This document shows positions 2,296 to 44,400 of a stretch of DNA of 64,000 nt, in pieces. Below the pieces are notes generated by a model. The model was not told where the DNA came from and ran no database searches. It saw nothing but the letters and a program-made list of their open reading frames with translations. Source of the stretch: a virus; UHGV virus genome UHGV-0211740; one strand, written 5' to 3'. The position numbers and the translations under genes are program-made. Each line of letters begins with the position of its first letter. Position 1 is the stretch's first letter.

Positions 2296-3579
2296 TCATT
2301 CCAGAACCTCCCAAGTGTCAGGGTTAACATTTCGGACGCAGATGCCGACAGGGAATTGGTAGTTGTTGTCTTCTGTCCTTGCTTGATATTTGAAGGTGAC
2401 AAACTTGCCGATCATTTCCTGCATCCTGTCATAGCTACGCTCCTCGTGCGTGCCTTTCATCTTCATTTTAACAACGATACCTTCCTTGTCAACGCAGATA
2501 AGAACACCTTCATCATTCTTATCTTTCTCAACGTCAATAACTTTCACCTCAGCATCGTTGAACTTTTTCCATTTCAATGCTTCAGATGTTCGCTGACCAT
2601 ATTCATATTTACCGCAGAAGTTACGCATGATAGTACCTTCATATCCTTCTGACATGAATACACCAACAGATTCTTCGCAATGATCAACTGTGTACGCAAG
2701 CTCTGCGTCAACAACCTTGATATGGTCAAGCATCAGAGTGGTAATGGTATCTTCTGCATCCATAAGGTCCTTGCATCTTCCAGATTCTGTTTCCGGATCC
2801 CACCATACCTTGTCACTAGGGATGTCGAAAATATGATACTCTAAGTCATAGCTACAGTACCCTCCGTAACGCAAATCATCACGAACAGGCTCAACATCAA
2901 CAGGAATATCTACCTTATTGAAGTTTTTGTATGTTGATAAGCCTGCCTTAATTGCGGCATGACGGCGTTTTTTATCTGCCTCGTAGTCTTTATCTATCTC
3001 GGCCTGAATCTCTTCCTGTGTGCGCCACCGTTTAGCAAGAGACACTATTTTCTGCAGAGGCAGACCATGAATATAGATCTCTCCGTCGAGCTGTTTAATC
3101 CCGGTGGTGAAGTGGAAAGAACGAAGTTGCTCCAGAAGCTTTCCTTGAATAGGGTAGGACTTATTACCACGGGAAATAAATTTAGGCTCACCGTTTTGGA
3201 AAACAACCAGTAGACGAAGGCCATCTAACTTACGCAAGATCCAGCAAGGTAATTTAAGTGCCTTTCCACGCTTCAGGTAGTCATGCATCAGCATGGGTAA
3301 AAGGTCAACCCCCTGCTCGCAATCTTCCATATTTTCAACATACCCCAGACGGACTTGTTTTTCCCACTTACTGATCGCTTCCAGCTCAGCCTGTTGCTCA
3401 GCTGTAGTTTCATTGGCACGGCCCACGTTCTTAGGTGTGCAGATCGTCTCTTTGTATTGCAGTTTACCATCAAGCTTGCCAAACTCTACGATAACCTTAT
3501 CACCATCCGTGAATACTTTCCACTGTTGGTAGCTGCCATCTTTGTTCAGTGCGTACAGTGTTGTTTTGATCTGATGCAT
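2296..3579 (-). CDS. ATP-dependent DNA ligase
   Basis: 427 aa; nucleotidyltransferase motifs in order: I LRKLDGLR, III LDGEIYIHG, IV EGTIMRN, V LKWKKF. Confidence 0.65.
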   Translation of the reverse strand: MHQIKTTLYALNKDGSYQQWKVFTDGDKVIVEFGKLDGKLQYKETICTPKNVGRANETTAEQQAELEAISKWEKQVRLGYVENMEDCEQGVDLLPMLMHDYLKRGKALKLPCWILRKLDGLRLLVVFQNGEPKFISRGNKSYPIQGKLLEQLRSFHFTTGIKQLDGEIYIHGLPLQKIVSLAKRWRTQEEIQAEIDKDYEADKKRRHAAIKAGLSTYKNFNKVDIPVDVEPVRDDLRYGGYCSYDLEYHIFDIPSDKVWWDPETESGRCKDLMDAEDTITTLMLDHIKVVDAELAYTVDHCEESVGVFMSEGYEGTIMRNFCGKYEYGQRTSEALKWKKFNDAEVKVIDVEKDKNDEGVLICVDKEGIVVKMKMKGTHEERSYDRMQEMIGKFVTFKYQARTEDNNYQFPVGICVRNVNPDTWEVLE

Positions 3580-3848
3580 TACTCAGCCTCTTCCTTAAAA
3601 ATTTTAAACATCTCTTCTTTGCTCATTACCAACCAGTCTCCCATAAAGTCAACTAACCAATCCCCTTGGTACAAGACCAGGTTACCAAACGGCTCGACAA
3701 GCTCACACATGCGAAGAATATCTCTGGTCCGAACAGGTGACGGTGTAAACACACCTGTATCAATCCACCGTTGCAGATCAGATACTGATGAAGAGCTTCC
3801 GTCAAACTGGTGTGCTTCTACAGGTTTAGCAAGATTAAATAACGGCAT
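3579..3848 (-). CDS. hypothetical protein
   Basis: 89-aa ORF, start overlaps stop of ligase gene. Confidence 0.4.
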   Translation of the reverse strand: MPLFNLAKPVEAHQFDGSSSSVSDLQRWIDTGVFTPSPVRTRDILRMCELVEPFGNLVLYQGDWLVDFMGDWLVMSKEEMFKIFKEEAE

Positions 3849-4143
3849 TGCAGTCCTCCTTCTCTAATAGGTCTTTTATCGGGTAAACAAGTAGGTGTGG
3901 ATCGTAATAATTTATAGTTTTATTCTGCCACACTATGAACTTAATTACAACTAAATTTACCACATCTTTATCTCCATGTAGTCCAACACACAGATTTGTC
4001 CATATTTTGTGGTTGAAGACCTTACTGTCGATGTAGATCTTAGTGTCAAACTTATCCTCTATCCTGCCTATAAGTTTAACCAATTCTTTCATCTGATCCC
4101 CAAACACAGCATCGTTTTCAAGATACCTAGAGTGCTTGTACAT
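3835..4143 (-). CDS. hypothetical protein
   Basis: 102-aa ORF. Confidence 0.4.
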   Translation of the reverse strand: MYKHSRYLENDAVFGDQMKELVKLIGRIEDKFDTKIYIDSKVFNHKIWTNLCVGLHGDKDVVNLVVIKFIVWQNKTINYYDPHLLVYPIKDLLEKEDCNAVI

Positions 4144-4175
4144 AACTAACTACCTCACTTTCCTACTTTCCACAA

Positions 4176-4199
4176 CAGATAAAGCCGGGTGACCCCGGC
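4176..4199 (-). terminator. rho-independent terminator (leftward)
   Basis: Perfect hairpin GCCGGGTGACCCCGGC at 4184-4199 followed on the minus strand by a T-rich run; lies just after the stop of the 4207-4920 gene. Confidence 0.45.
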
Positions 4200-4206
4200 T
4201 ATGTTG

Positions 4207-4920
4207 TTAAATATACTCTGTTACATCCTTGAAGCTTGAAGGCTTCATAATCTTACCTTTGCTGTCAAGGAAGATGATAACCTTATTACCGTTGTAGAAT
4301 TCTTCTTTAGCAACAAAACCTTCATATCTACCATCGAAGCGTCGCTCAAGATCTTTAATCTCTAACTCTACAAGTTGTTCAACAGGCATATCTGCACTGG
4401 CACCGTGTGAATACCGTAGATGGTTGACCCGTGCAAACTTGCTGTCATTAGATTTGAGAACCTTCCGCATCATCCCGCACACATCACCGCGAAGCTGGAA
4501 TAGCAAAGCTGTTGACAACTCCGCCAGGCGGTAAGCAGAAGCTTTTTGCTTGGAGGTGTTTTTTGCAGCGATCAGTGTGTCATAGAACTCACCGATCTTA
4601 AACTTAAGACCTCGCGGATTATCAAACAGGTTTGACCACTTTTCATGATTATCATTAACAAGATAAGCGGCATAGCTTGTAACAACATGAAGATCGCAGG
4701 CCTCTTTTAGCAGATGATCTCCACCATCACCTTTCTCCAGCTCTTCCAAAACCTCATTAAACTCTTCCTCAATGAAGCTAAGTTGTAATTCGAATGGTGT
4801 GTATGATTTTTTCACTTTAGCTGCCACACGGTTCCAGTTTTCCACCCAGTTGGCAGACCAAAGGTAGTTTTCAGGTTGGGACAGTTTTTCCAGATTGTCA
4901 ATTAACTTAGTATTCAGCAT
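4207..4920 (-). CDS. putative MazG-like nucleotide pyrophosphohydrolase domain protein
   Basis: 237 aa; N-terminal acidic helices IEEEFNEVLEELEKGDGGDHLLKEACDLHVV resemble the paired E-x-x-E / D-L-L motifs of MazG-type NTP pyrophosphatases; tentative. Confidence 0.3.
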   Translation of the reverse strand: MLNTKLIDNLEKLSQPENYLWSANWVENWNRVAAKVKKSYTPFELQLSFIEEEFNEVLEELEKGDGGDHLLKEACDLHVVTSYAAYLVNDNHEKWSNLFDNPRGLKFKIGEFYDTLIAAKNTSKQKASAYRLAELSTALLFQLRGDVCGMMRKVLKSNDSKFARVNHLRYSHGASADMPVEQLVELEIKDLERRFDGRYEGFVAKEEFYNGNKVIIFLDSKGKIMKPSSFKDVTEYI

Positions 4921-4933
4921 TAAAGGTCTCCTT

Positions 4934-5695
4934 TTAAAGTTCCATGAAGTTTTCTACAGTTTCAATCAATGTTTTATCAGAGAAAGCGTCAACCGCACCG
5001 TTAAACCAAACAGGAATGCCGCGATCCTCATACTGGTAAATGTCACTACGTGAAATGCCATTCTCCTCCAAATGCTGTGAGTCATATTTGTTAACAATCA
5101 ACAGCTTAGTTCCCTTGTTACAGGCAGGGAACAGCTCCCAGTTAAAATTGATAACTGTGTTTGAGCACCCTACAAGGATAACCATATCATTGCTTGTCAG
5201 AGAAGTCAACAGATCATACATGTCTGTATACTTTGGAGCAACTTCTCCGAAGAACACCACATTAGGCTTAACCCAAATATACTCGCCTGCATCTACCTCC
5301 GAATACCCAATGTCTTTAATGACATTGCTTCCTTCATCGTCCTCATAGACTATTTCTGGCAAATACCCGTGGACATGTAAAATATCTTCATGTTTTACAC
5401 CAGCACGCTCTAGCAAATCATCTACATTGGTGGTCAGGTTGATCACACGACCAGACCAACGAGAATACCACTCTGCGATCCGGAGATGTGCAAGATTAGG
5501 CTCAACACTGCCCAAAGCTATACGCCGTGCATTGTAAAAGTCATGCACCTTATAATAGTTCTTGGCAAAGGTGTGGATGTTACACACCTCATCGATGCTG
5601 AAATTCTCCCACATTGCAGTGCTACCAGATCGAAAGGTGGGGATACCGGATTCAGCACTCAAGCCAGCACCAGAGATAACAATCAGTCGTCGCAT
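4934..5695 (-). CDS. Sir2-family (sirtuin-like) NAD-dependent protein
   Basis: 253 aa; Sir2 motifs in order: GAGLSAESGIPTFR, TTNVDDLLERAG, HVHG, VVFFGE, ILVGCS; no CxxC...CxxC zinc ribbon visible. Confidence 0.8.
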   Translation of the reverse strand: MRRLIVISGAGLSAESGIPTFRSGSTAMWENFSIDEVCNIHTFAKNYYKVHDFYNARRIALGSVEPNLAHLRIAEWYSRWSGRVINLTTNVDDLLERAGVKHEDILHVHGYLPEIVYEDDEGSNVIKDIGYSEVDAGEYIWVKPNVVFFGEVAPKYTDMYDLLTSLTSNDMVILVGCSNTVINFNWELFPACNKGTKLLIVNKYDSQHLEENGISRSDIYQYEDRGIPVWFNGAVDAFSDKTLIETVENFMEL

Positions 5696-5703
5696 AGGTG
5701 TCC

Positions 5704-6051
5704 TCAGTAAATGTTCTGTTTAATCTCTATTCCAAACTTTTTGAACGAATCTGCAGCAAGCATAAATTTACGAGCTGCCGATGGGTTAGAAGTATGCACG
5801 AAAATCTTCACGTTGTCAACCACAGGTGGCTTGCCAAATACAAATAGCTCTTCCAGTCTCAATAAAACAGCATATCCGTCTTGATCAGAGTCTTCACCCA
5901 AATCGTGGTCAAAGAACCACTCTGTCACTCTTCGATACATTTTAGCAGAATTATTAAGAAACTCCATAGCCTCTTGTGAGGTTTTAAACCAAATTGCATC
6001 TGCCTGTCCGTAGTCAGCTGGGTTACGCAAATCATCTATCCAAACTTTCAT
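5704..6051 (-). CDS. hypothetical protein, receiver-like fold suspected
   Basis: 115 aa; pattern KVWIDD...FFDHDLGED...DGYAVLLRL...KIFVHTSN loosely resembles a CheY-like alternating beta/alpha layout; no confident family. Confidence 0.4.
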   Translation of the reverse strand: MKVWIDDLRNPADYGQADAIWFKTSQEAMEFLNNSAKMYRRVTEWFFDHDLGEDSDQDGYAVLLRLEELFVFGKPPVVDNVKIFVHTSNPSAARKFMLAADSFKKFGIEIKQNIY

Positions 6052-6059
6052 ACATACCT

Positions 6060-6668
6060 CTAAAAATTTTCTATCGGTGTTTTTGAAGATAAAGCTAAAA
6101 CTATCTTATTCTCAATTCTTCGTAATCCTAATAGCAACCTACTATCATCTACAGTTTTAATCAAGTCTCTAAGAAGTTGCAGTTTACATTCTAAGTATCT
6201 CATGTGTGCCTCAATCTGCGTGGGGAAGGTTCCAAGATAAACCTGCGTGTCCTTAACCCCATCTTTGCAATAGGCAGCAAAAGATGGGCCTTTTCTTCTT
6301 ACTCCCATCAAACACTCCCCTCTTTGCGGCATCCTTGCTACAAAGAAGTTGTTTATTTCCCGGGGAACAAAAATACACGCTTCTGGGCAGTATATAAGAT
6401 TATTCTCGAAGAGAATATCTTTATCTAAAAATTTATCCCGCCAATCTTGTTTTTCCATCCAACGCTTGAAGTTGCTGAAGATTTTCCATTCTTCACAAAC
6501 TTCTACCATAGCATAAGCTTCAAATTTCTTGTTTTTAAGGTAGCACCTCCCTAGCATATTTGACCACGTCATATAAAAAGGACACATTATTCTCTTTCCA
6601 GTATCCTTGTCCAAAACCCTGACAGGATAGTCTGCATCATTAACACCAACACCATGTACAAGTTTCAT
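6060..6668 (-). CDS. putative homing endonuclease-like protein with AP2-type DNA-binding region
   Basis: 202 aa; segment KDGVKDTQVYLGTFPTQIEAHMRY fits the AP2 pattern (LGTF.T.EEA..AY) common in phage HNH/AP2 endonucleases; N-terminal GVGVNDADYPV motif. Confidence 0.4.
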   Translation of the reverse strand: MKLVHGVGVNDADYPVRVLDKDTGKRIMCPFYMTWSNMLGRCYLKNKKFEAYAMVEVCEEWKIFSNFKRWMEKQDWRDKFLDKDILFENNLIYCPEACIFVPREINNFFVARMPQRGECLMGVRRKGPSFAAYCKDGVKDTQVYLGTFPTQIEAHMRYLECKLQLLRDLIKTVDDSRLLLGLRRIENKIVLALSSKTPIENF

Positions 6669-6712
6669 ACAGACCTCTTAAGCTGAAATGATTAAAAAGA
6701 ACTTCCCCTTCT

Positions 6713-7669
6713 TCATTGCATATAGTCCTCGTTGTGGAAATAGTAGTCAAGTATCTCACGACGTTCCTGCTCAAGGAGGCAGTTCCACACATCCTCTGTG
6801 TAGTTGTTACGAATGAAGTTTACCATGCCATAAAACTCTTCGTCAATACGTTTAAAGATATCCTCATCCCAAATCTTCCAAGCTCTCCCTCTCATTACGG
6901 CCTTCCGTGCCAGGTAGTATGGAGATTTGATCTTCAACTGCAGGTCATAAGGGTAGTAAGGATTACGGATCATGTACCCTTCGCCCCTTGTTTCTGCAGC
7001 TAATTCTTTTGCATAGCTGAACGGAATTTCACGCACAGTGTGAGGACGTTTTGCACCAAGATACTTGGCAATACCGTCTAAAGCCGCTTCTGGTAGCATT
7101 ATTCCAGAATCATTGTATCTACAACCTATCAAATACGCACCATGATCCTCATGAACAATATGCGGGTCTGAAGGGTGACAAATTTCAAACATAAATGTCA
7201 TGTTTTCATGGCCCATAACCTTCTTGATAAGATCTAAATTGCCACATTGCTCCTGAATGGTTTCCTTTGCAAGGTTACAATATGGAGAATCAAGAGACCC
7301 AGTCGTTGAGAATAATAGTTCACCTTTATGAGAGGATACCACGCCAAGGAACCCGTTCTTTTTCTCTACAGCCGTCACAAGCTTATTGTCAGGTAGGTTG
7401 GTTGAGTTTTCTCCCAAGTTAAACACTTTTGTGAAGGGCCATGCCACAACATTCCCCTCGTTACCGACAACAATGCCTCGGCACTCCAGTAGACGCGGAG
7501 AAAAATGCCATAAATTGTTGTAGAATACTTTTCTGGCATATTTGTAGATCTTTAATCCGAGATCTGGATAATACCGACTGGTTACAAGACCTTTATCCAC
7601 TAAATCATCTGCATTAAAATACTTCATCATGCGTTCCTCATTTGTCATTTTGTTCCACAATCTTCCCAC
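6713..7669 (-). CDS. putative RNA ligase (nucleotidyltransferase superfamily)
   Basis: 318 aa; motif I VEKKNGFLG (K-x-N-G), motif IV EGYMIRN, motif V LQLKIKSP; divergently adjacent to a kinase/phosphatase pair. Confidence 0.5.
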   Translation of the reverse strand: MGRLWNKMTNEERMMKYFNADDLVDKGLVTSRYYPDLGLKIYKYARKVFYNNLWHFSPRLLECRGIVVGNEGNVVAWPFTKVFNLGENSTNLPDNKLVTAVEKKNGFLGVVSSHKGELLFSTTGSLDSPYCNLAKETIQEQCGNLDLIKKVMGHENMTFMFEICHPSDPHIVHEDHGAYLIGCRYNDSGIMLPEAALDGIAKYLGAKRPHTVREIPFSYAKELAAETRGEGYMIRNPYYPYDLQLKIKSPYYLARKAVMRGRAWKIWDEDIFKRIDEEFYGMVNFIRNNYTEDVWNCLLEQERREILDYYFHNEDYMQ

Positions 7670-7691
7670 ACAAACAGTATCATGTCAACAC

Positions 7692-7720
7692 TTGAAATGC
7701 TCAAAAGAACACGGTATACT
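7692..7720 (+). promoter_or_regulatory. sigma70-like promoter
   Basis: TTGAAA (7692-7697), 17-nt spacer, TATACT (7715-7720); about 30 nt upstream of the kinase gene, in the divergent intergenic region. Confidence 0.45.
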
Positions 7721-7748
7721 GTCGTTAAAATTAAAACGGAGGGTCGCT

Positions 7749-8159
7749 ATGTCTAAAATGCTATATATCGTGCGTGGTCTACCAGGGTCTGGCAAATCAA
7801 CACTGGCAAATGCGTTATCTTTAGAAGGTCTGTATCCACATTTTGAGAACGACATGTTCTGGTACGACGATGATGGAAATTACAACTGGGATGCAAGTAA
7901 AGTGACACTTGCTGCAAAATGGTGCAAAGATAATATAGAAGATATGATGCGTATGGGGTACGACCGTGTCGTGGTAAGCAACACATTCACAAAAGAAAAG
8001 CATGTGCAAGAGTATATTGACATGGCGATCCGTAATGGGTATAATTACACAGTAATCGTGGTGGAGAATCGCCACGGTAACAAAAGTATCCACAATGTTC
8101 CAGAAAAGGTTGTGGATCGTATGGAACGTGAACTGAAAAACTGTATTAAACTTAAATGA
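7749..8159 (+). CDS. P-loop kinase, polynucleotide kinase-like
   Basis: Walker A GLPGSGKST near N-terminus as in T4 Pnk kinase domain; start set at ATG 7749 with GGAGG RBS (ORF track start 7629 is upstream in-frame). Confidence 0.55.
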   Translation: MSKMLYIVRGLPGSGKSTLANALSLEGLYPHFENDMFWYDDDGNYNWDASKVTLAAKWCKDNIEDMMRMGYDRVVVSNTFTKEKHVQEYIDMAIRNGYNYTVIVVENRHGNKSIHNVPEKVVDRMERELKNCIKLK

Positions 8160-8166
8160 GGATAGT

Positions 8167-8721
8167 ATGAAATATTTTATAACAAGTGACACACACTTTC
8201 TCCACCAGCGTGTTATGGAGTTCGATTCTTGTCAAAAGCACAGATCGCAGTATAACCACGATCTTGATAGCATGAATGCAGGGATCATAGACAAGTGGAA
8301 CTCAATTGTGTCACCATGGGACACTGTGTTCCACTTGGGAGACATTGCATGCACTAAGGATAAGAATATCAACAACTTACTGCCTGAAATTCTAAATATG
8401 CTGAACGGACATATTATTCTTGTTCGTGGTAACCATGACACAAGGACGACTGTCAGAATTATGAAAGAGTTCTGTCATGAGGTTGTAGATTATTACGAGC
8501 TTCGCCACAACAAGAATCTGATCTGTATGAGCCATTACCAGTTTGCAACGTGGAACAGAAAGCCCCACGGATCAGTTCAACTGTTTGGTCATGCTCACGG
8601 AACCACACAACAGTTATTTGGCAGGCAGTTGGATGTTGGTTGGGATGTATGGGGTAGACTGTTACCACTAGAAGAGGCATACAGCCTTGCAATGAGTTTT
8701 GATATTGACAGCAGGGAGTAA
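8167..8721 (+). CDS. calcineurin-like metallophosphoesterase
   Basis: 184 aa; metallophosphatase motifs SDTHF, HLGDI, GNHD in order. Confidence 0.75.
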   Translation: MKYFITSDTHFLHQRVMEFDSCQKHRSQYNHDLDSMNAGIIDKWNSIVSPWDTVFHLGDIACTKDKNINNLLPEILNMLNGHIILVRGNHDTRTTVRIMKEFCHEVVDYYELRHNKNLICMSHYQFATWNRKPHGSVQLFGHAHGTTQQLFGRQLDVGWDVWGRLLPLEEAYSLAMSFDIDSRE

Positions 8722-41477: not shown

Positions 41478-44400
41478 TGCCAATTGCAATGATTGATAAC
41501 ATCGTTGCTTCTGCAAGATCTTCGAGCTATGACTGGAACGCATCCAAGGCGGCTCTGGCTGACAGTCTGAACACTGTTACCACCAGAACTCTGGATAAGA
41601 TTTTTGAGGGCAACAAATCTTACAGAGGCCAGCAAGATAGACAAAAGCTTCTCAGATCTTCAGCTGCACCTTGTTCTGTAGTGTATGGGAAGACACGCAC
41701 ATCGGGATTGCTTGCGTTTTTGGAGCAGGACAGGGACAGAACCCTCCATTGTGCCATTGTTCTTGCCAATCACCCTCTGGAAGGTGTAGAAGACATACTT
41801 ATCGACGGTAATCCTATTTCTTCATATGGAGATTTGGTATCGTGGGAGCTGCATAACGACAGAAAAACATCTGATCCTTTCATGGGGACACACTGCCCTT
41901 CGTGGTCACCAGACATGATAGGTAGAGGGATCAGTTGGCTGCGTGCCAGCTTCAAATTTGACCCTAACAAGTTTCCTTTTGGGTTGCCAAACGTTACACT
42001 CGTCAAGGTTGGTAAAAAATGCTATGATCCTCGCATCAGCAAAGAGGTGTATACCAATAACGCGGCCTTGGTGATTCTGGACTATTTAAGAACATACCTT
42101 AAATGTCCTGACGAAACCATCAACTGGGAGTCCTTCAAGGAAGCTGCCAACATATGTGACGAGGCTGTAAGAAACGCTGACGGAACCAGTGAGCGTCGTT
42201 ACACCATCAATGGTGAGTTCGACATGGATGAGGCTCCAGCAAGCATCATGGCAGAAATGCTGAAAGCCTGTGGTGCAGATCTTAGCTATGTGGCTGGTAA
42301 GTATGGATTGCTGGTTGGGGCCTATTATGGACCAGCAACAATGACACTGGGTGAGGATTGTGTTTGTGGTGAAGTCAAGATCTATCCAGAAGCTTCCTTT
42401 GACAAAAGATCCAACACAATAACTGGTAGATTCACCAGTCCTGCCAAAGGATACTCTGAAACAGATTTCCCATCAGTGTTTGTTCCAGAGTGGATAGAGA
42501 AGGATGGGGAAAGAAAGATAATCGATATAGATTATCGTTTTGTCACCAGTCCTTATCAGGCCCAGCGTGTTTCCGCGATATTCTTAAGACGTGCCAGAGC
42601 TGGTAGGATTATTGAAGTCACGTGCAATATGCGTGGTTTTAAATTTAAGCCTGGACGCTACGTCACAATGAACCTCCCAAGTATTGGCATAGTAGGCCAA
42701 GAGATGAGAGTTCTTGAGTGGGAGTTCACTAAAAAGGGCGGTGTTAAGGTAAAACTTCGTCAAGATGCGAAAGAGTGGAATGATGCCACAGGTCAACTTC
42801 CTGACTCTGGTGATGTAGATATTCCTGTGTCCCCATCTGGTGTGGCTCAACCGCAAAACTTCAGATTCTCTGTTCTTCAAGCTGGAGAAGTAACTCATGG
42901 TGTTTTAGCTTGGGACAACGTTGGGACTTACGCTCAAAACATTGTGCAGGTCAGGAAAAATGGAGAGATTGTCTGGACAGCACAGACAGTTGAGCAGTTT
43001 GTCCGTGTTGAAGGTCTGACTAAAGGGTCTTACACAGCCACTGTTGTTGCAACATCTTATAAAGGCGGTGTATCTCCAGAAGCGTACTGTGAGTTTAACA
43101 TTCAGGCACCTGAGGCTCCGGTTTCTGTAGAAGTTAAGCAGGGATATTTTGCTATCACCTTAATTCCGCACAGCAGGGATTTAGCAAGTGTCAGCACCCA
43201 GTATGACTTTTGGACATCCGGCATGACAAGGTTGCCTGACACTAGTGATGCAACCGTCACTTCAAAAGCTACTCGCATGGGTGTTGGTTCAACTTGGACA
43301 TCTGAAGGTCTGCAGAACGATAAGGTTTATTATTGGTATATTCGAACCACAAACGCTTTTGGTAGTTCTCAGTTTGTAGAGTGTGCTGCACGCTGCTATA
43401 CCTCTATTGAAGATTTGATGCCTCAGATAGATGCTGAATTTAAAAAGACAGAGACTTATAAAGAGTTGATGAGCACTTTAGATTCTTCTATCGAAGAGGT
43501 TGAAAATCGGGTCACAGAACTTAACAAGTACATGGATGGTAGAGTTGATGAAGCTTTTGATCACATGGAAAGTGAGTTCTCTAGAGTAGACAAGCTGTAT
43601 GCTCAGCTGGGAGATAGGGTAGGGGTATTCATCCAAGAAACCAGTGAAAACTTCCAAGATGTTAATGGAACGCTTACCGCTCTCGACCAGAAACTGGTAG
43701 CCACTCAGAACAAGTTTACAGATGATCTCTCTAAAGAAAGTGGCAAGCTAACCTCTCTGATCCAGACCACTAACAAAGCTACAACTGATCTTCTTAATAA
43801 GAAAACAGAAGCTTTGGACGAGAAGATTGTTTCGACCAGGGGCGAGTTGGAAGATGCTTTAGCACAGGAAAGCGCTGAGCTGAACTCTCTGATTGTATCT
43901 ACCAATAAAACGACTACAGATCTCCTTAATCAGAAAACCGAGGCACTGGACAATAAGCTGACGGCAACGAAAGGTGAGTTGACCAACAACTTGAATAATG
44001 AGAGTGCTAAACTGTCGTCGTTGATTGAGACAACCAACAAATCCACCACTGATCTTCTTAACAAGAAAACAGATGCGTTGGATGAAAAACTGGTTGCTGC
44101 ACAGGGTGAGCTAACTGAGCAGATTGGCGATGTTGAAAAAGGTTATCTGGCTGGAGATAAGAGCCTAGAAGGTAAGTTGAATACTCAGAGATCTGAGTTG
44201 GATGCAAGCATTCTGAGTACTAATCAGGCTACTGTGGATTTGCTGAATAGAACTTCTCAGACTCTTGACCAGAAGATTAGCCAGACTAACGCCACGGTAT
44301 CTAAAAACTACACCACTCTAGATGGCAAGATCAACACCACCAAATCTGATCTCAATACGTTGATCTCTACCACCAACAAGGCCACAACGGACCTGCTGAA

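Follow-up and report, generated by a model that had tools for sequence, protein, structure and literature searches.

A zinc-less sirtuin in a predicted RNA-repair gene cluster of an rV5-like coliphage

The DNA analysed here (the 'window', 64,000 nucleotides of UHGV virus genome UHGV-0211740) belongs to an rV5-like Vequintavirus and carries, on its minus strand, a gene for a zinc-less protein of the Sir2 (sirtuin) family. On sequence evidence, the gene lies in a conserved cluster for the healing and sealing of RNA ends (positions 4183-8721). The explanation that we favour, tentatively and by analogy with the account of Iyer et al. (2022), is that the cluster repairs RNA ends and that the sirtuin would serve as a remover of RNA 2'-phosphates of the Tpt1/KptA type, dependent on nicotinamide adenine dinucleotide (NAD+). 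Since a ligase, a kinase and a metallophosphoesterase are present, the context is one of RNA repair rather than of NAD depletion or host takeover.

The arrangement is already known. The sirtuin gene is labelled 'Sir2-like' or 'NAD-dependent deacetylase' in most rV5-like records (more than 100 GenBank phages), and both its neighbourhood and a role were published in 2022. Iyer, Burroughs, Anand, de Souza and Aravind (Viruses 14:1977, PMC9503650, section 3.7.3) described, on the basis of comparative genomics, a type-2 sirtuin-centred phage RNA-repair neighbourhood with Escherichia phage V5 and Proteus phage Mydo as prototypes. They predicted a KptA-like sirtuin that removes, in an NAD+-dependent reaction, 2'-phosphates that arise from 2',3'-cyclic phosphate ends; the associated esterases were proposed either to open these cyclic ends or to deal with the by-product, an ADP-ribose cyclic phosphate (PMC9503650). 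The six genes of their type-2 set (sirtuin, T4-like RNA ligase, cREC, nucleotide kinase, MazG-superfamily pyrophosphatase and calcineurin-like phosphoesterase) all lie within 4207-8721, and the window is 93-99% identical to V5-like phages. A preliminary description of this DNA, made from the sequence alone, had put forward the genes between 4207 and 6051 as its best candidate for an uncharacterised system; in view of this publication the system is not a new one. The central feature is:

4934-5695, minus strand: zinc-less sirtuin of the class III (CobB/SIRT5-like) lineage, 253 residues, single domain.

Its translation contains the sirtuin motifs GAGLSAESGIPTFR (residues 9-22), TTNVDDLL (88-95), H109-G110 and VFFGE (147-151), and its key residues are GAGxS (9-13), F21-R22, C38, Y54/R57, T89-N90-V91-D92, H109 and FGE (149-151). 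The match to the Pfam SIR2 profile (PF02146) is, as a sequence match, far beyond chance (E = 4.2e-27; 95.7 bits against a cutoff of 24; profile positions 1-178 of 180), and PHROG 2162 ('Sir2') is matched at 5e-109. A sequence search of the PDB retrieved CobB (1s5p) both with the single sequence (4e-21) and with a profile (2e-29). The predicted structure is confident (AF2 pLDDT 90.4) and has the Rossmann domain and small domain of the sirtuin fold, as judged by Foldseek comparison of the AF2 model with CobB. CobB is also the best Foldseek match (E = 6e-19, about 1e-18; TM 0.71-0.84), followed by the archaeal Sir2-Af1 and SIRT5. H109 aligns with the catalytic histidine of Escherichia coli CobB, and in 78 sequences of the clade G9-A10-G11-x-S13, F21-R22, N90/D92, H109-G110 and F149-G150-E151 are invariant or nearly so; the Gln of the TQNID motif is Thr89 in the phage protein. 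The sirtuin has a complete NAD pocket and retains the catalytic histidine. The preliminary description had proposed a protein with the full sirtuin motifs and without zinc cysteines. Both parts were borne out, with the reading frame inside the Sir2 superfamily and H109 retained, and its coordinates for this frame and two neighbours (4207-4920, 237 residues; 4934-5695, 253 residues; 5704-6051, 115 residues; all minus strand) were exact.

The protein has three cysteines only (C38, C177 and C192). None lies in the 35 residues between H109-G110 and V146, where CobB has its zinc cysteines, and the four-cysteine zinc ribbon is absent. We surveyed the 120 closest homologue clusters, 87 of which could be parsed. 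The loss is clade-wide: there are 0-2 cysteines per cluster in this segment (two in one cluster only), and a CxxC pair occurs there in none of the 87. The zinc ribbon of sirtuins is a structural feature, not a catalytic one.

Y54 and R57 are also invariant and align with FYNARR of CobB and FYHYRR of SIRT5, so that the Tyr-x-x-Arg pair of the acyl pocket is present. In SIRT5 the counterparts of these residues, Tyr102 and Arg105, select negatively charged acyl groups (PMC3484402). The invariance of Y54/R57 and their match to the SIRT5 pair imply that an anion-binding pocket is conserved beside the NAD site, and such an oxyanion site would fit a phosphate substrate.

The other features of the cluster are as follows:

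4183-4200, minus strand: terminator-like G+C-rich hairpin, AGCCGGGgtcaCCCGGCT then TTATCTGTT, found by consensus scan and in the sequence, 6 nucleotides past the pyrophosphohydrolase stop codon.
4207-4920, minus strand: all-alpha nucleoside triphosphate pyrophosphohydrolase (MazG/HisE/dimeric-dUTPase superfamily), 237 residues.
5704-6051, minus strand: cREC (cyclic-phosphate-processing receiver-fold domain), 115 residues; PF20274 cREC_REC, E = 1.4e-16, 61 bits against a cutoff of 27.
6060-6668, minus strand: HNH-type homing endonuclease, between the RNA ligase and cREC genes; PHROG 953, 4e-69.
6713-7669, minus strand: Rnl1-type (T4 RnlA-like) ATP-dependent RNA ligase; PF09511, 1.5e-14; PHROG 562, 3e-66.
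7670-7748, no strand: divergent intergenic region between the ligase and kinase units, from the sequence and a consensus scan.
7749-8159, plus strand: P-loop kinase (GLPGSGKST), candidate polynucleotide 5'-kinase, 136 residues; PF13671 AAA_33, 1.6e-10; PHROG 2071, 1e-57.
8167-8721, plus strand: calcineurin-like binuclear metallophosphoesterase, 184 residues; PF12850, 5.6e-6; PF00149, 9e-5; PHROG 547, 1e-50.

The leftward unit runs from the Rnl1-type ligase through the HNH endonuclease, cREC, the sirtuin and the pyrophosphohydrolase to the hairpin, and the kinase and phosphoesterase form a divergent rightward unit. Gaps of 8 nucleotides (cREC/Sir2) and 13 nucleotides (Sir2/pyrophosphohydrolase), a Shine-Dalgarno motif before each downstream gene (for the sirtuin GAGGA, 5 nucleotides upstream of the ATG and overlapping the cREC stop codon) and the terminal hairpin are the reasons for which we take the leftward genes to be co-transcribed. 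The hairpin has a weak T-tract and is the likely 3' end of this transcription unit. In the intergenic region a candidate sigma-70-like promoter (7692-7720, plus strand) is a consensus match only. At about 7700 the coding strand and the GC skew flip (negative leftward, positive rightward), which coincides with the divergent promoter region of the two units. The sirtuin had initially been placed beside MazG-like and receiver-like genes; these are indeed co-oriented and tightly packed, and what was missed is the set of neighbours past 6051 (ligase, kinase and metallophosphoesterase).

The RNA ligase matches TIGR02308 at 8e-10, which is under the cutoff, and relatives annotate it as RNA ligase; its true start may be an internal ATG. 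The kinase matches PHROG 505 ('polynucleotide kinase') at 5e-10 and carries that label in phage Bas52. The motifs DTH, GD, GNHD and GHAH can be read in the metallophosphoesterase translation, and the protein may act on RNA 3' ends as a 2',3'-cyclic phosphodiesterase and phosphomonoesterase. Six phage transfer RNA (tRNA) genes (Arg-TCT, Tyr-GTA, Ser-TGA, Thr-TGT, Met-CAT and Pro-TGG) are found at 11660-12468, 3 kb downstream of the phosphoesterase, and relatives hold other tRNA sets at the matching position. On the other side of the cluster, two small conserved open reading frames (3579-4143; 102 residues, PHROG 7684, and 89 residues, PHROG 14585), homologues of which accompany the cluster in Mydo-like phages, separate the pyrophosphohydrolase gene from an ATP-dependent DNA ligase gene (2296-3579).

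The preliminary description had assigned these genes to an accessory island, which is contradicted by their conservation: 124 phage records carry the block at 92-99% identity. In a nucleotide search, positions 4000-5845 matched one Vequintavirinae genome at 98.8% identity and more than 100 rV5-like coliphages at 92-93%. In two annotated relatives, 241Ecol014PP and BASEL phage Bas52 RudolfGeigy, the pyrophosphohydrolase, Sir2, cREC and RNA ligase genes lie on one strand and those for the polynucleotide kinase and phosphoesterase are divergent, on the opposite strand. The gene order is common to the Vequintavirus records and to Mydo-like phages (about 145 kb), and the block is a conserved part of the phage early/nucleic-acid-metabolism region. 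GenBank records MG065655, MG065652 and 16 more are named 'Campylobacter phage' (host Campylobacter jejuni) and share 92-93% identity with E. coli rV5-like phages over the region; their host label looks doubtful.

In cREC, residues D6, D7, R9, D48, D50-L51-G52, G59-Y60, V85-H86 and N89-P90 are invariant among rV5-like, Mydo-like, Phapecoctavirus and jumbo-phage homologues, so that the acidic residues D6, D7, D48 and D50 accompany the profile match to the family. A two-component receiver was ruled out: cREC_REC, and not Response_reg, is the sole Pfam match of 5704-6051, and no histidine kinase was found in the neighbouring genes scanned. The first designation, 'receiver-like', thus had the right fold family and is narrowed to cREC. 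This domain is predicted to be a cyclic-phosphate esterase, with ADP-ribose cyclic phosphate among its substrates, and was experimentally uncharacterised according to Iyer et al. 2022 (PMC9503650).

The cREC gene is a mosaic, of Phapecoctavirus type in its 5' half and of rV5 type in its 3' half: compared with an rV5-like relative, the protein is identical over its last 53 residues and about 47% identical over residues 3-62. Almost none of the rV5-like relatives has the adjoining HNH endonuclease, and their DNA matches end at window position 5845. The endonuclease and the 5' half of cREC (window 5828-6711) share 86% identity with Phapecoctavirus SKA64, in which the endonuclease likewise adjoins cREC. 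The segment 5828-6711 looks like the product of homing with co-conversion between two phage subfamilies, and the endonuclease is a mobile passenger outside the pathway.

In the mechanism that we favour, following Iyer et al. (2022), host anticodon nucleases and other metal-independent RNases would cut tRNA or messenger RNA to leave 2',3'-cyclic-phosphate and 5'-OH ends. The kinase would phosphorylate the 5' end, the cyclic phosphate would be opened by cREC and/or the metallophosphoesterase, and the break would be sealed by the ligase. Where a 2'-phosphate persists (as in the yeast and plant Trl1 pathway), the sirtuin would remove it using NAD+. A phosphate oxygen would attack C1'' of NAD+ and expel nicotinamide, and the 2''-OH of the ADP-ribose, activated by His109, would then attack the phosphorus to give 2'-OH RNA and ADP-ribose 1'',2''-cyclic phosphate. 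This would amount to Tpt1/KptA chemistry on a sirtuin scaffold, and the cyclic ADP-ribose by-product would be degraded by cREC and phosphoesterases. Two steps are shared by sirtuins and Tpt1: an oxygen nucleophile attacks C1'' of NAD+, expelling nicotinamide, and the ribose 2''-OH attacks the newly attached group. The cyclic phosphodiesterase, phosphatase and pyrophosphatase partners, found in all three neighbourhood types described below, would fit a KptA-type reaction because ADP-ribose 1'',2''-cyclic phosphate would need them and O-acyl-ADP-ribose would not. The tRNA cluster at 11660-12468 provides possible substrates nearby.

We examined the company kept by the sirtuin in a survey anchored on Sir2 (69 viral loci with sirtuin relatives, with their open reading frames scanned and partners counted within 10 kb). 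The rV5-like and Mydo-like loci (11 of 69) have the ligase, kinase, metallophosphoesterase and pyrophosphohydrolase, with cREC too in 8 of the 11, and two further, partial loci hold only some of these genes. T5-like loci (28 of 69) combine the sirtuin with a HAD_SAK_2 phosphatase and DUF7415 proteins. In phage T5 itself (NC_005859; L072, 7002-9482) the order is sirtuin T5.102, HAD_SAK_2 phosphatase T5.105 and two DUF7415 proteins; T5.105, which RefSeq mislabels 'Sir2', matches 'HAD domain in Swiss Army Knife RNA repair proteins' at 4e-20. Jumbo phages (4 of 69) have Nudix and cREC genes, and a 2H gene too in three of the four. For example, on a 360-kb jumbo-phage contig (L063, 9510-12001) the sirtuin is flanked by a 2H phosphoesterase matching the anti-CBASS Acb1 family (1e-15), a Nudt16-like Nudix enzyme and cREC. 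No partner was detected within 10 kb at 15 of the 69 loci (various, including Phapecoctavirus-type contigs). Three differing phosphoesterase sets thus accompany the sirtuin, and for each the known or predicted targets are RNA termini or ADP-ribose cyclic phosphate. A sirtuin of another lineage, from an unrelated phage group (L068-L070), also occurs close to RNA-repair genes, as a second, independent case: on a 129-kb viral contig (L068, 4683-11161) the genes for an Rnl1-type ligase and an AAA_33 kinase are 3-5 kb away from that for a canonical sirtuin, which has the zinc ligands CxxC...CxxC and the motif TQNID. The open reading frame that follows it in L068-L070 is Macro-like by eye, which Pfam did not confirm.

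A reverse survey was anchored on cREC (80 loci; partners sought within 10 kb by seed profiles) and found a sirtuin within that distance in 11. No partner was detected at 55 distant loci, which marks the sensitivity limit of the seed profiles and is not evidence of absence. The 'same ORF' flags of this survey are unreliable (they derive from stop-to-stop segments). Taken together, the healing-and-sealing core is a stable unit, which the sirtuin often accompanies but from which it can be separated. The pyrophosphohydrolase stays with this core and with the DNA ligase, not with the sirtuin, from which the DNA ligase gene separates it in other genera.

Several points weigh against a sirtuin that removes 2'-phosphates. 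A kinase, a metallophosphoesterase and a ligase suffice for T4-style repair without any 2'-phosphate; E. coli already encodes KptA; and the sirtuin clade is acidic (isoelectric point 4.6-6.05), which is unusual for an RNA-binding enzyme. The genes can also be found apart. T5-like loci have no detectable RNA ligase within 10 kb of the sirtuin, and at least 8 of the 80 cREC loci have ligase, kinase and/or phosphoesterase without a sirtuin within 10 kb. The Phapecoctavirus cluster has no sirtuin among its genes, which encode cREC, phosphoesterase, ligase, kinase, DNA ligase and pyrophosphohydrolase, and the sirtuin of these phages, from the same clade, is encoded about 30 kb away (in SKA64, OM362897, at 42.5 kb (42468-43268) with the cluster at 9-16 kb (L073, 500-6300); in phAPEC8 at 24.1 kb with cREC at 55.2 kb). 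Positions A76, Y92, I131 and V187 of CobB, which were engineered for changed acyl specificity (PDB 6rxm, 6rxq and 6rxs, by their entry titles), align with C38, Y54, V91 and V146 of the phage protein, all invariant or nearly so. Finally, a literature search on phage sirtuins, Vequintavirus Sir2 and sirtuins with Tpt1 or RNA ligase/kinase returned no experimental work, only the 2022 comparative paper.

The boldest form of our proposal, which we regard as somewhat unlikely, is that the phage protein would be the first sirtuin to act on nucleic acid. By analogy, it would be an RNA 2'-phosphotransferase convergent with Tpt1/KptA and, with cREC as the cyclic phosphodiesterase, would bring yeast- and plant-style tRNA ligation through a 2'-phosphate to a coliphage. 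If true, this would extend sirtuin chemistry from acyl-lysine to RNA phosphate, provide a second, non-homologous solution for 2'-phosphate removal and explain how large coliphages withstand the anticodon nucleases of their hosts. The prediction is readily testable: E. coli K-12 supports growth of rV5-like BASEL phages such as Bas52, and the sirtuin is small and single-domain.

A deacylase role of the CobB/SIRT5 kind is a serious rival because the phage sirtuin retains the CobB/SIRT5 acyl pocket almost intact, including the Tyr/Arg pair. The protein would then be an NAD-dependent protein lysine deacylase, probably preferring acidic acyl groups (for example, succinyl) and resetting host or phage acylation, and its position in the cluster would reflect early-gene organisation. 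Taken as the whole explanation we consider this unlikely. In its favour, sequence and structure comparisons both place E. coli CobB and SIRT5 nearest to the phage protein, the catalytic histidine, NAD motifs, FGE loop and Tyr/Arg pair are invariant, the CobB acyl-pocket positions map to conserved residues, the protein is acidic and in Phapecoctavirus it is unlinked from the repair cluster. Set against this, scores are far under every NCBIfam CobB equivalog cutoff (at best 122 bits against 243, and 103 against 320), which rules out a CobB orthologue; the clade has invariant changes of its own (TTNVD for TQNID, GCS for GTS, and Cys38 where CobB has Ala76) and has lost the zinc ligands; no Macro domain or other O-acyl-ADP-ribose hydrolase is adjacent; and pairing with RNA-end and cyclic-phosphate esterases recurs in three neighbourhood types.

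The preliminary description had read the Sir2, MazG-like and receiver-like genes as an NAD/nucleotide-directed host-takeover or counter-defence module in which the sirtuin consumes NAD+ or ADP-ribosylates host proteins, by analogy with defence effectors and with SirTM ADP-ribosyltransferases. Its NAD-linked counter-defence aspect persists in our leading hypothesis; takeover gives way to the RNA-repair enzymes on the flanks, and we hold the module as proposed to be very unlikely. It is true that the NAD-binding and catalytic residues are intact, that the three genes are tightly packed and that some sirtuins are ADP-ribosyltransferases or NADases (PMC9503650). The two analogies nevertheless fail. 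No PADLOC model of defence-type SIR2 (ThsA, DSR, SIR2-HerA or pAgo-SIR2) was matched significantly by this single-domain protein (the sole match covers 34 residues, E = 0.0065) and PF13289 SIR2_2 is under its cutoff (E = 0.058), so that a defence-type effector was ruled out. SirTM was ruled out for want of a Macro partner, no Macro family match being found among the neighbours scanned (cREC, pyrophosphohydrolase, RNA ligase, kinase and phosphoesterase). NAD depletion would moreover hurt a phage dependent on an active host, and the DNA ligase gene between pyrophosphohydrolase and sirtuin in other genera argues against a three-gene module. Least probable of all is that the targets of sirtuin, cREC and pyrophosphatase are not RNA but small immune signals or toxic metabolites derived from NAD or nucleotides, in a counter-defence against signalling systems: the Acb1-like 2H enzyme, Nudix enzyme and cREC around the jumbo-phage sirtuin, and the cyclic phosphates that cREC is predicted to cleave (PMC9503650), are in keeping with it, but sirtuin chemistry requires a nicotinamide-ribose bond, which known cyclic ADP-ribose and cyclic-oligonucleotide signals lack, and the RNA ligase and polynucleotide-kinase-like protein in the window have no role in small-molecule degradation.

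Within the RNA-repair reading, the role of the pyrophosphohydrolase is the least certain, and it may concern nucleotide-pool housekeeping rather than the repair pathway. The protein alone is weak in Pfam (PRA-PH, E = 0.067) and matches PHROG 671 at 6e-22; a PDB sequence search gave no match. An exhaustive search yielded a family of 164 representatives (E <= 1e-3), mostly of 200-260 residues. PRA-PH is matched by 47 of 68 members sampled and, among close members, by 17 of 17, with MazG matched by 15 of 17. With E53 and D76 invariant and E52 and E56 almost so, the family has the acidic metal ligands (EExxE...D) of the MazG superfamily on a four-helix core. The 'MazG-like' of the preliminary description is therefore correct at the level of the superfamily, whereas the closest fold match is the dimeric dUTPase. 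Sequence identity to the dimeric dUTPases (of staphylococcal phages and Campylobacter), E. coli MazG and HisE is only 7-16%. Unlike the dimeric dUTPases, the phage protein has no Pfam dUTPase_2 match and belongs to its own family of about 230 residues, in which a small beta element at the C-terminus bears the conserved motif GKIMKP.

Like the Pnkp and Rnl1 tRNA repair of T4 (directed against the PrrC anticodon nuclease), the cluster has an Rnl1-type ligase, a 5'-kinase and a 3'-end phosphoesterase. Here, however, kinase and phosphoesterase are separate proteins, the phosphatase is calcineurin-like and not HAD, and cREC, the sirtuin and the pyrophosphohydrolase have no counterpart in T4. The metallophosphoesterase resembles the corresponding module of Clostridium thermocellum Pnkp (PMC2190708). 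CobB and SIRT5 are the nearest relatives of the sirtuin in sequence, fold, catalytic histidine, NAD motifs and acidic-acyl pocket; apart from the missing zinc cysteines, the motif changes and the equivalog scores, the phage protein differs in being phage-specific and in its RNA-repair gene context. The likeness to Tpt1/KptA, which acts with Trl1, Cpd1 and Poa1 in fungal and plant tRNA splicing, is one of proposed function, NAD-dependent 2'-phosphate removal (PMC9503650). PMC9503650 and PMC10946426 give ADP-ribose 1'',2''-cyclic phosphate as the by-product of that pathway, with accompanying cyclic phosphodiesterase and phosphatase activities. The two proteins are non-homologous: only sirtuin families match the phage protein in Pfam, NCBIfam and Foldseek, with no homology to the ADP-ribosyltransferase fold of Tpt1, and the activity of the phage protein, which has a sirtuin Rossmann fold, is a predicted one. 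The closest system is the type-2 neighbourhood typified by phages V5 and Mydo, the function of which is likewise a published prediction; the window departs from it in the homing endonuclease between ligase and cREC and in the mosaic cREC gene, and has an identical gene set.

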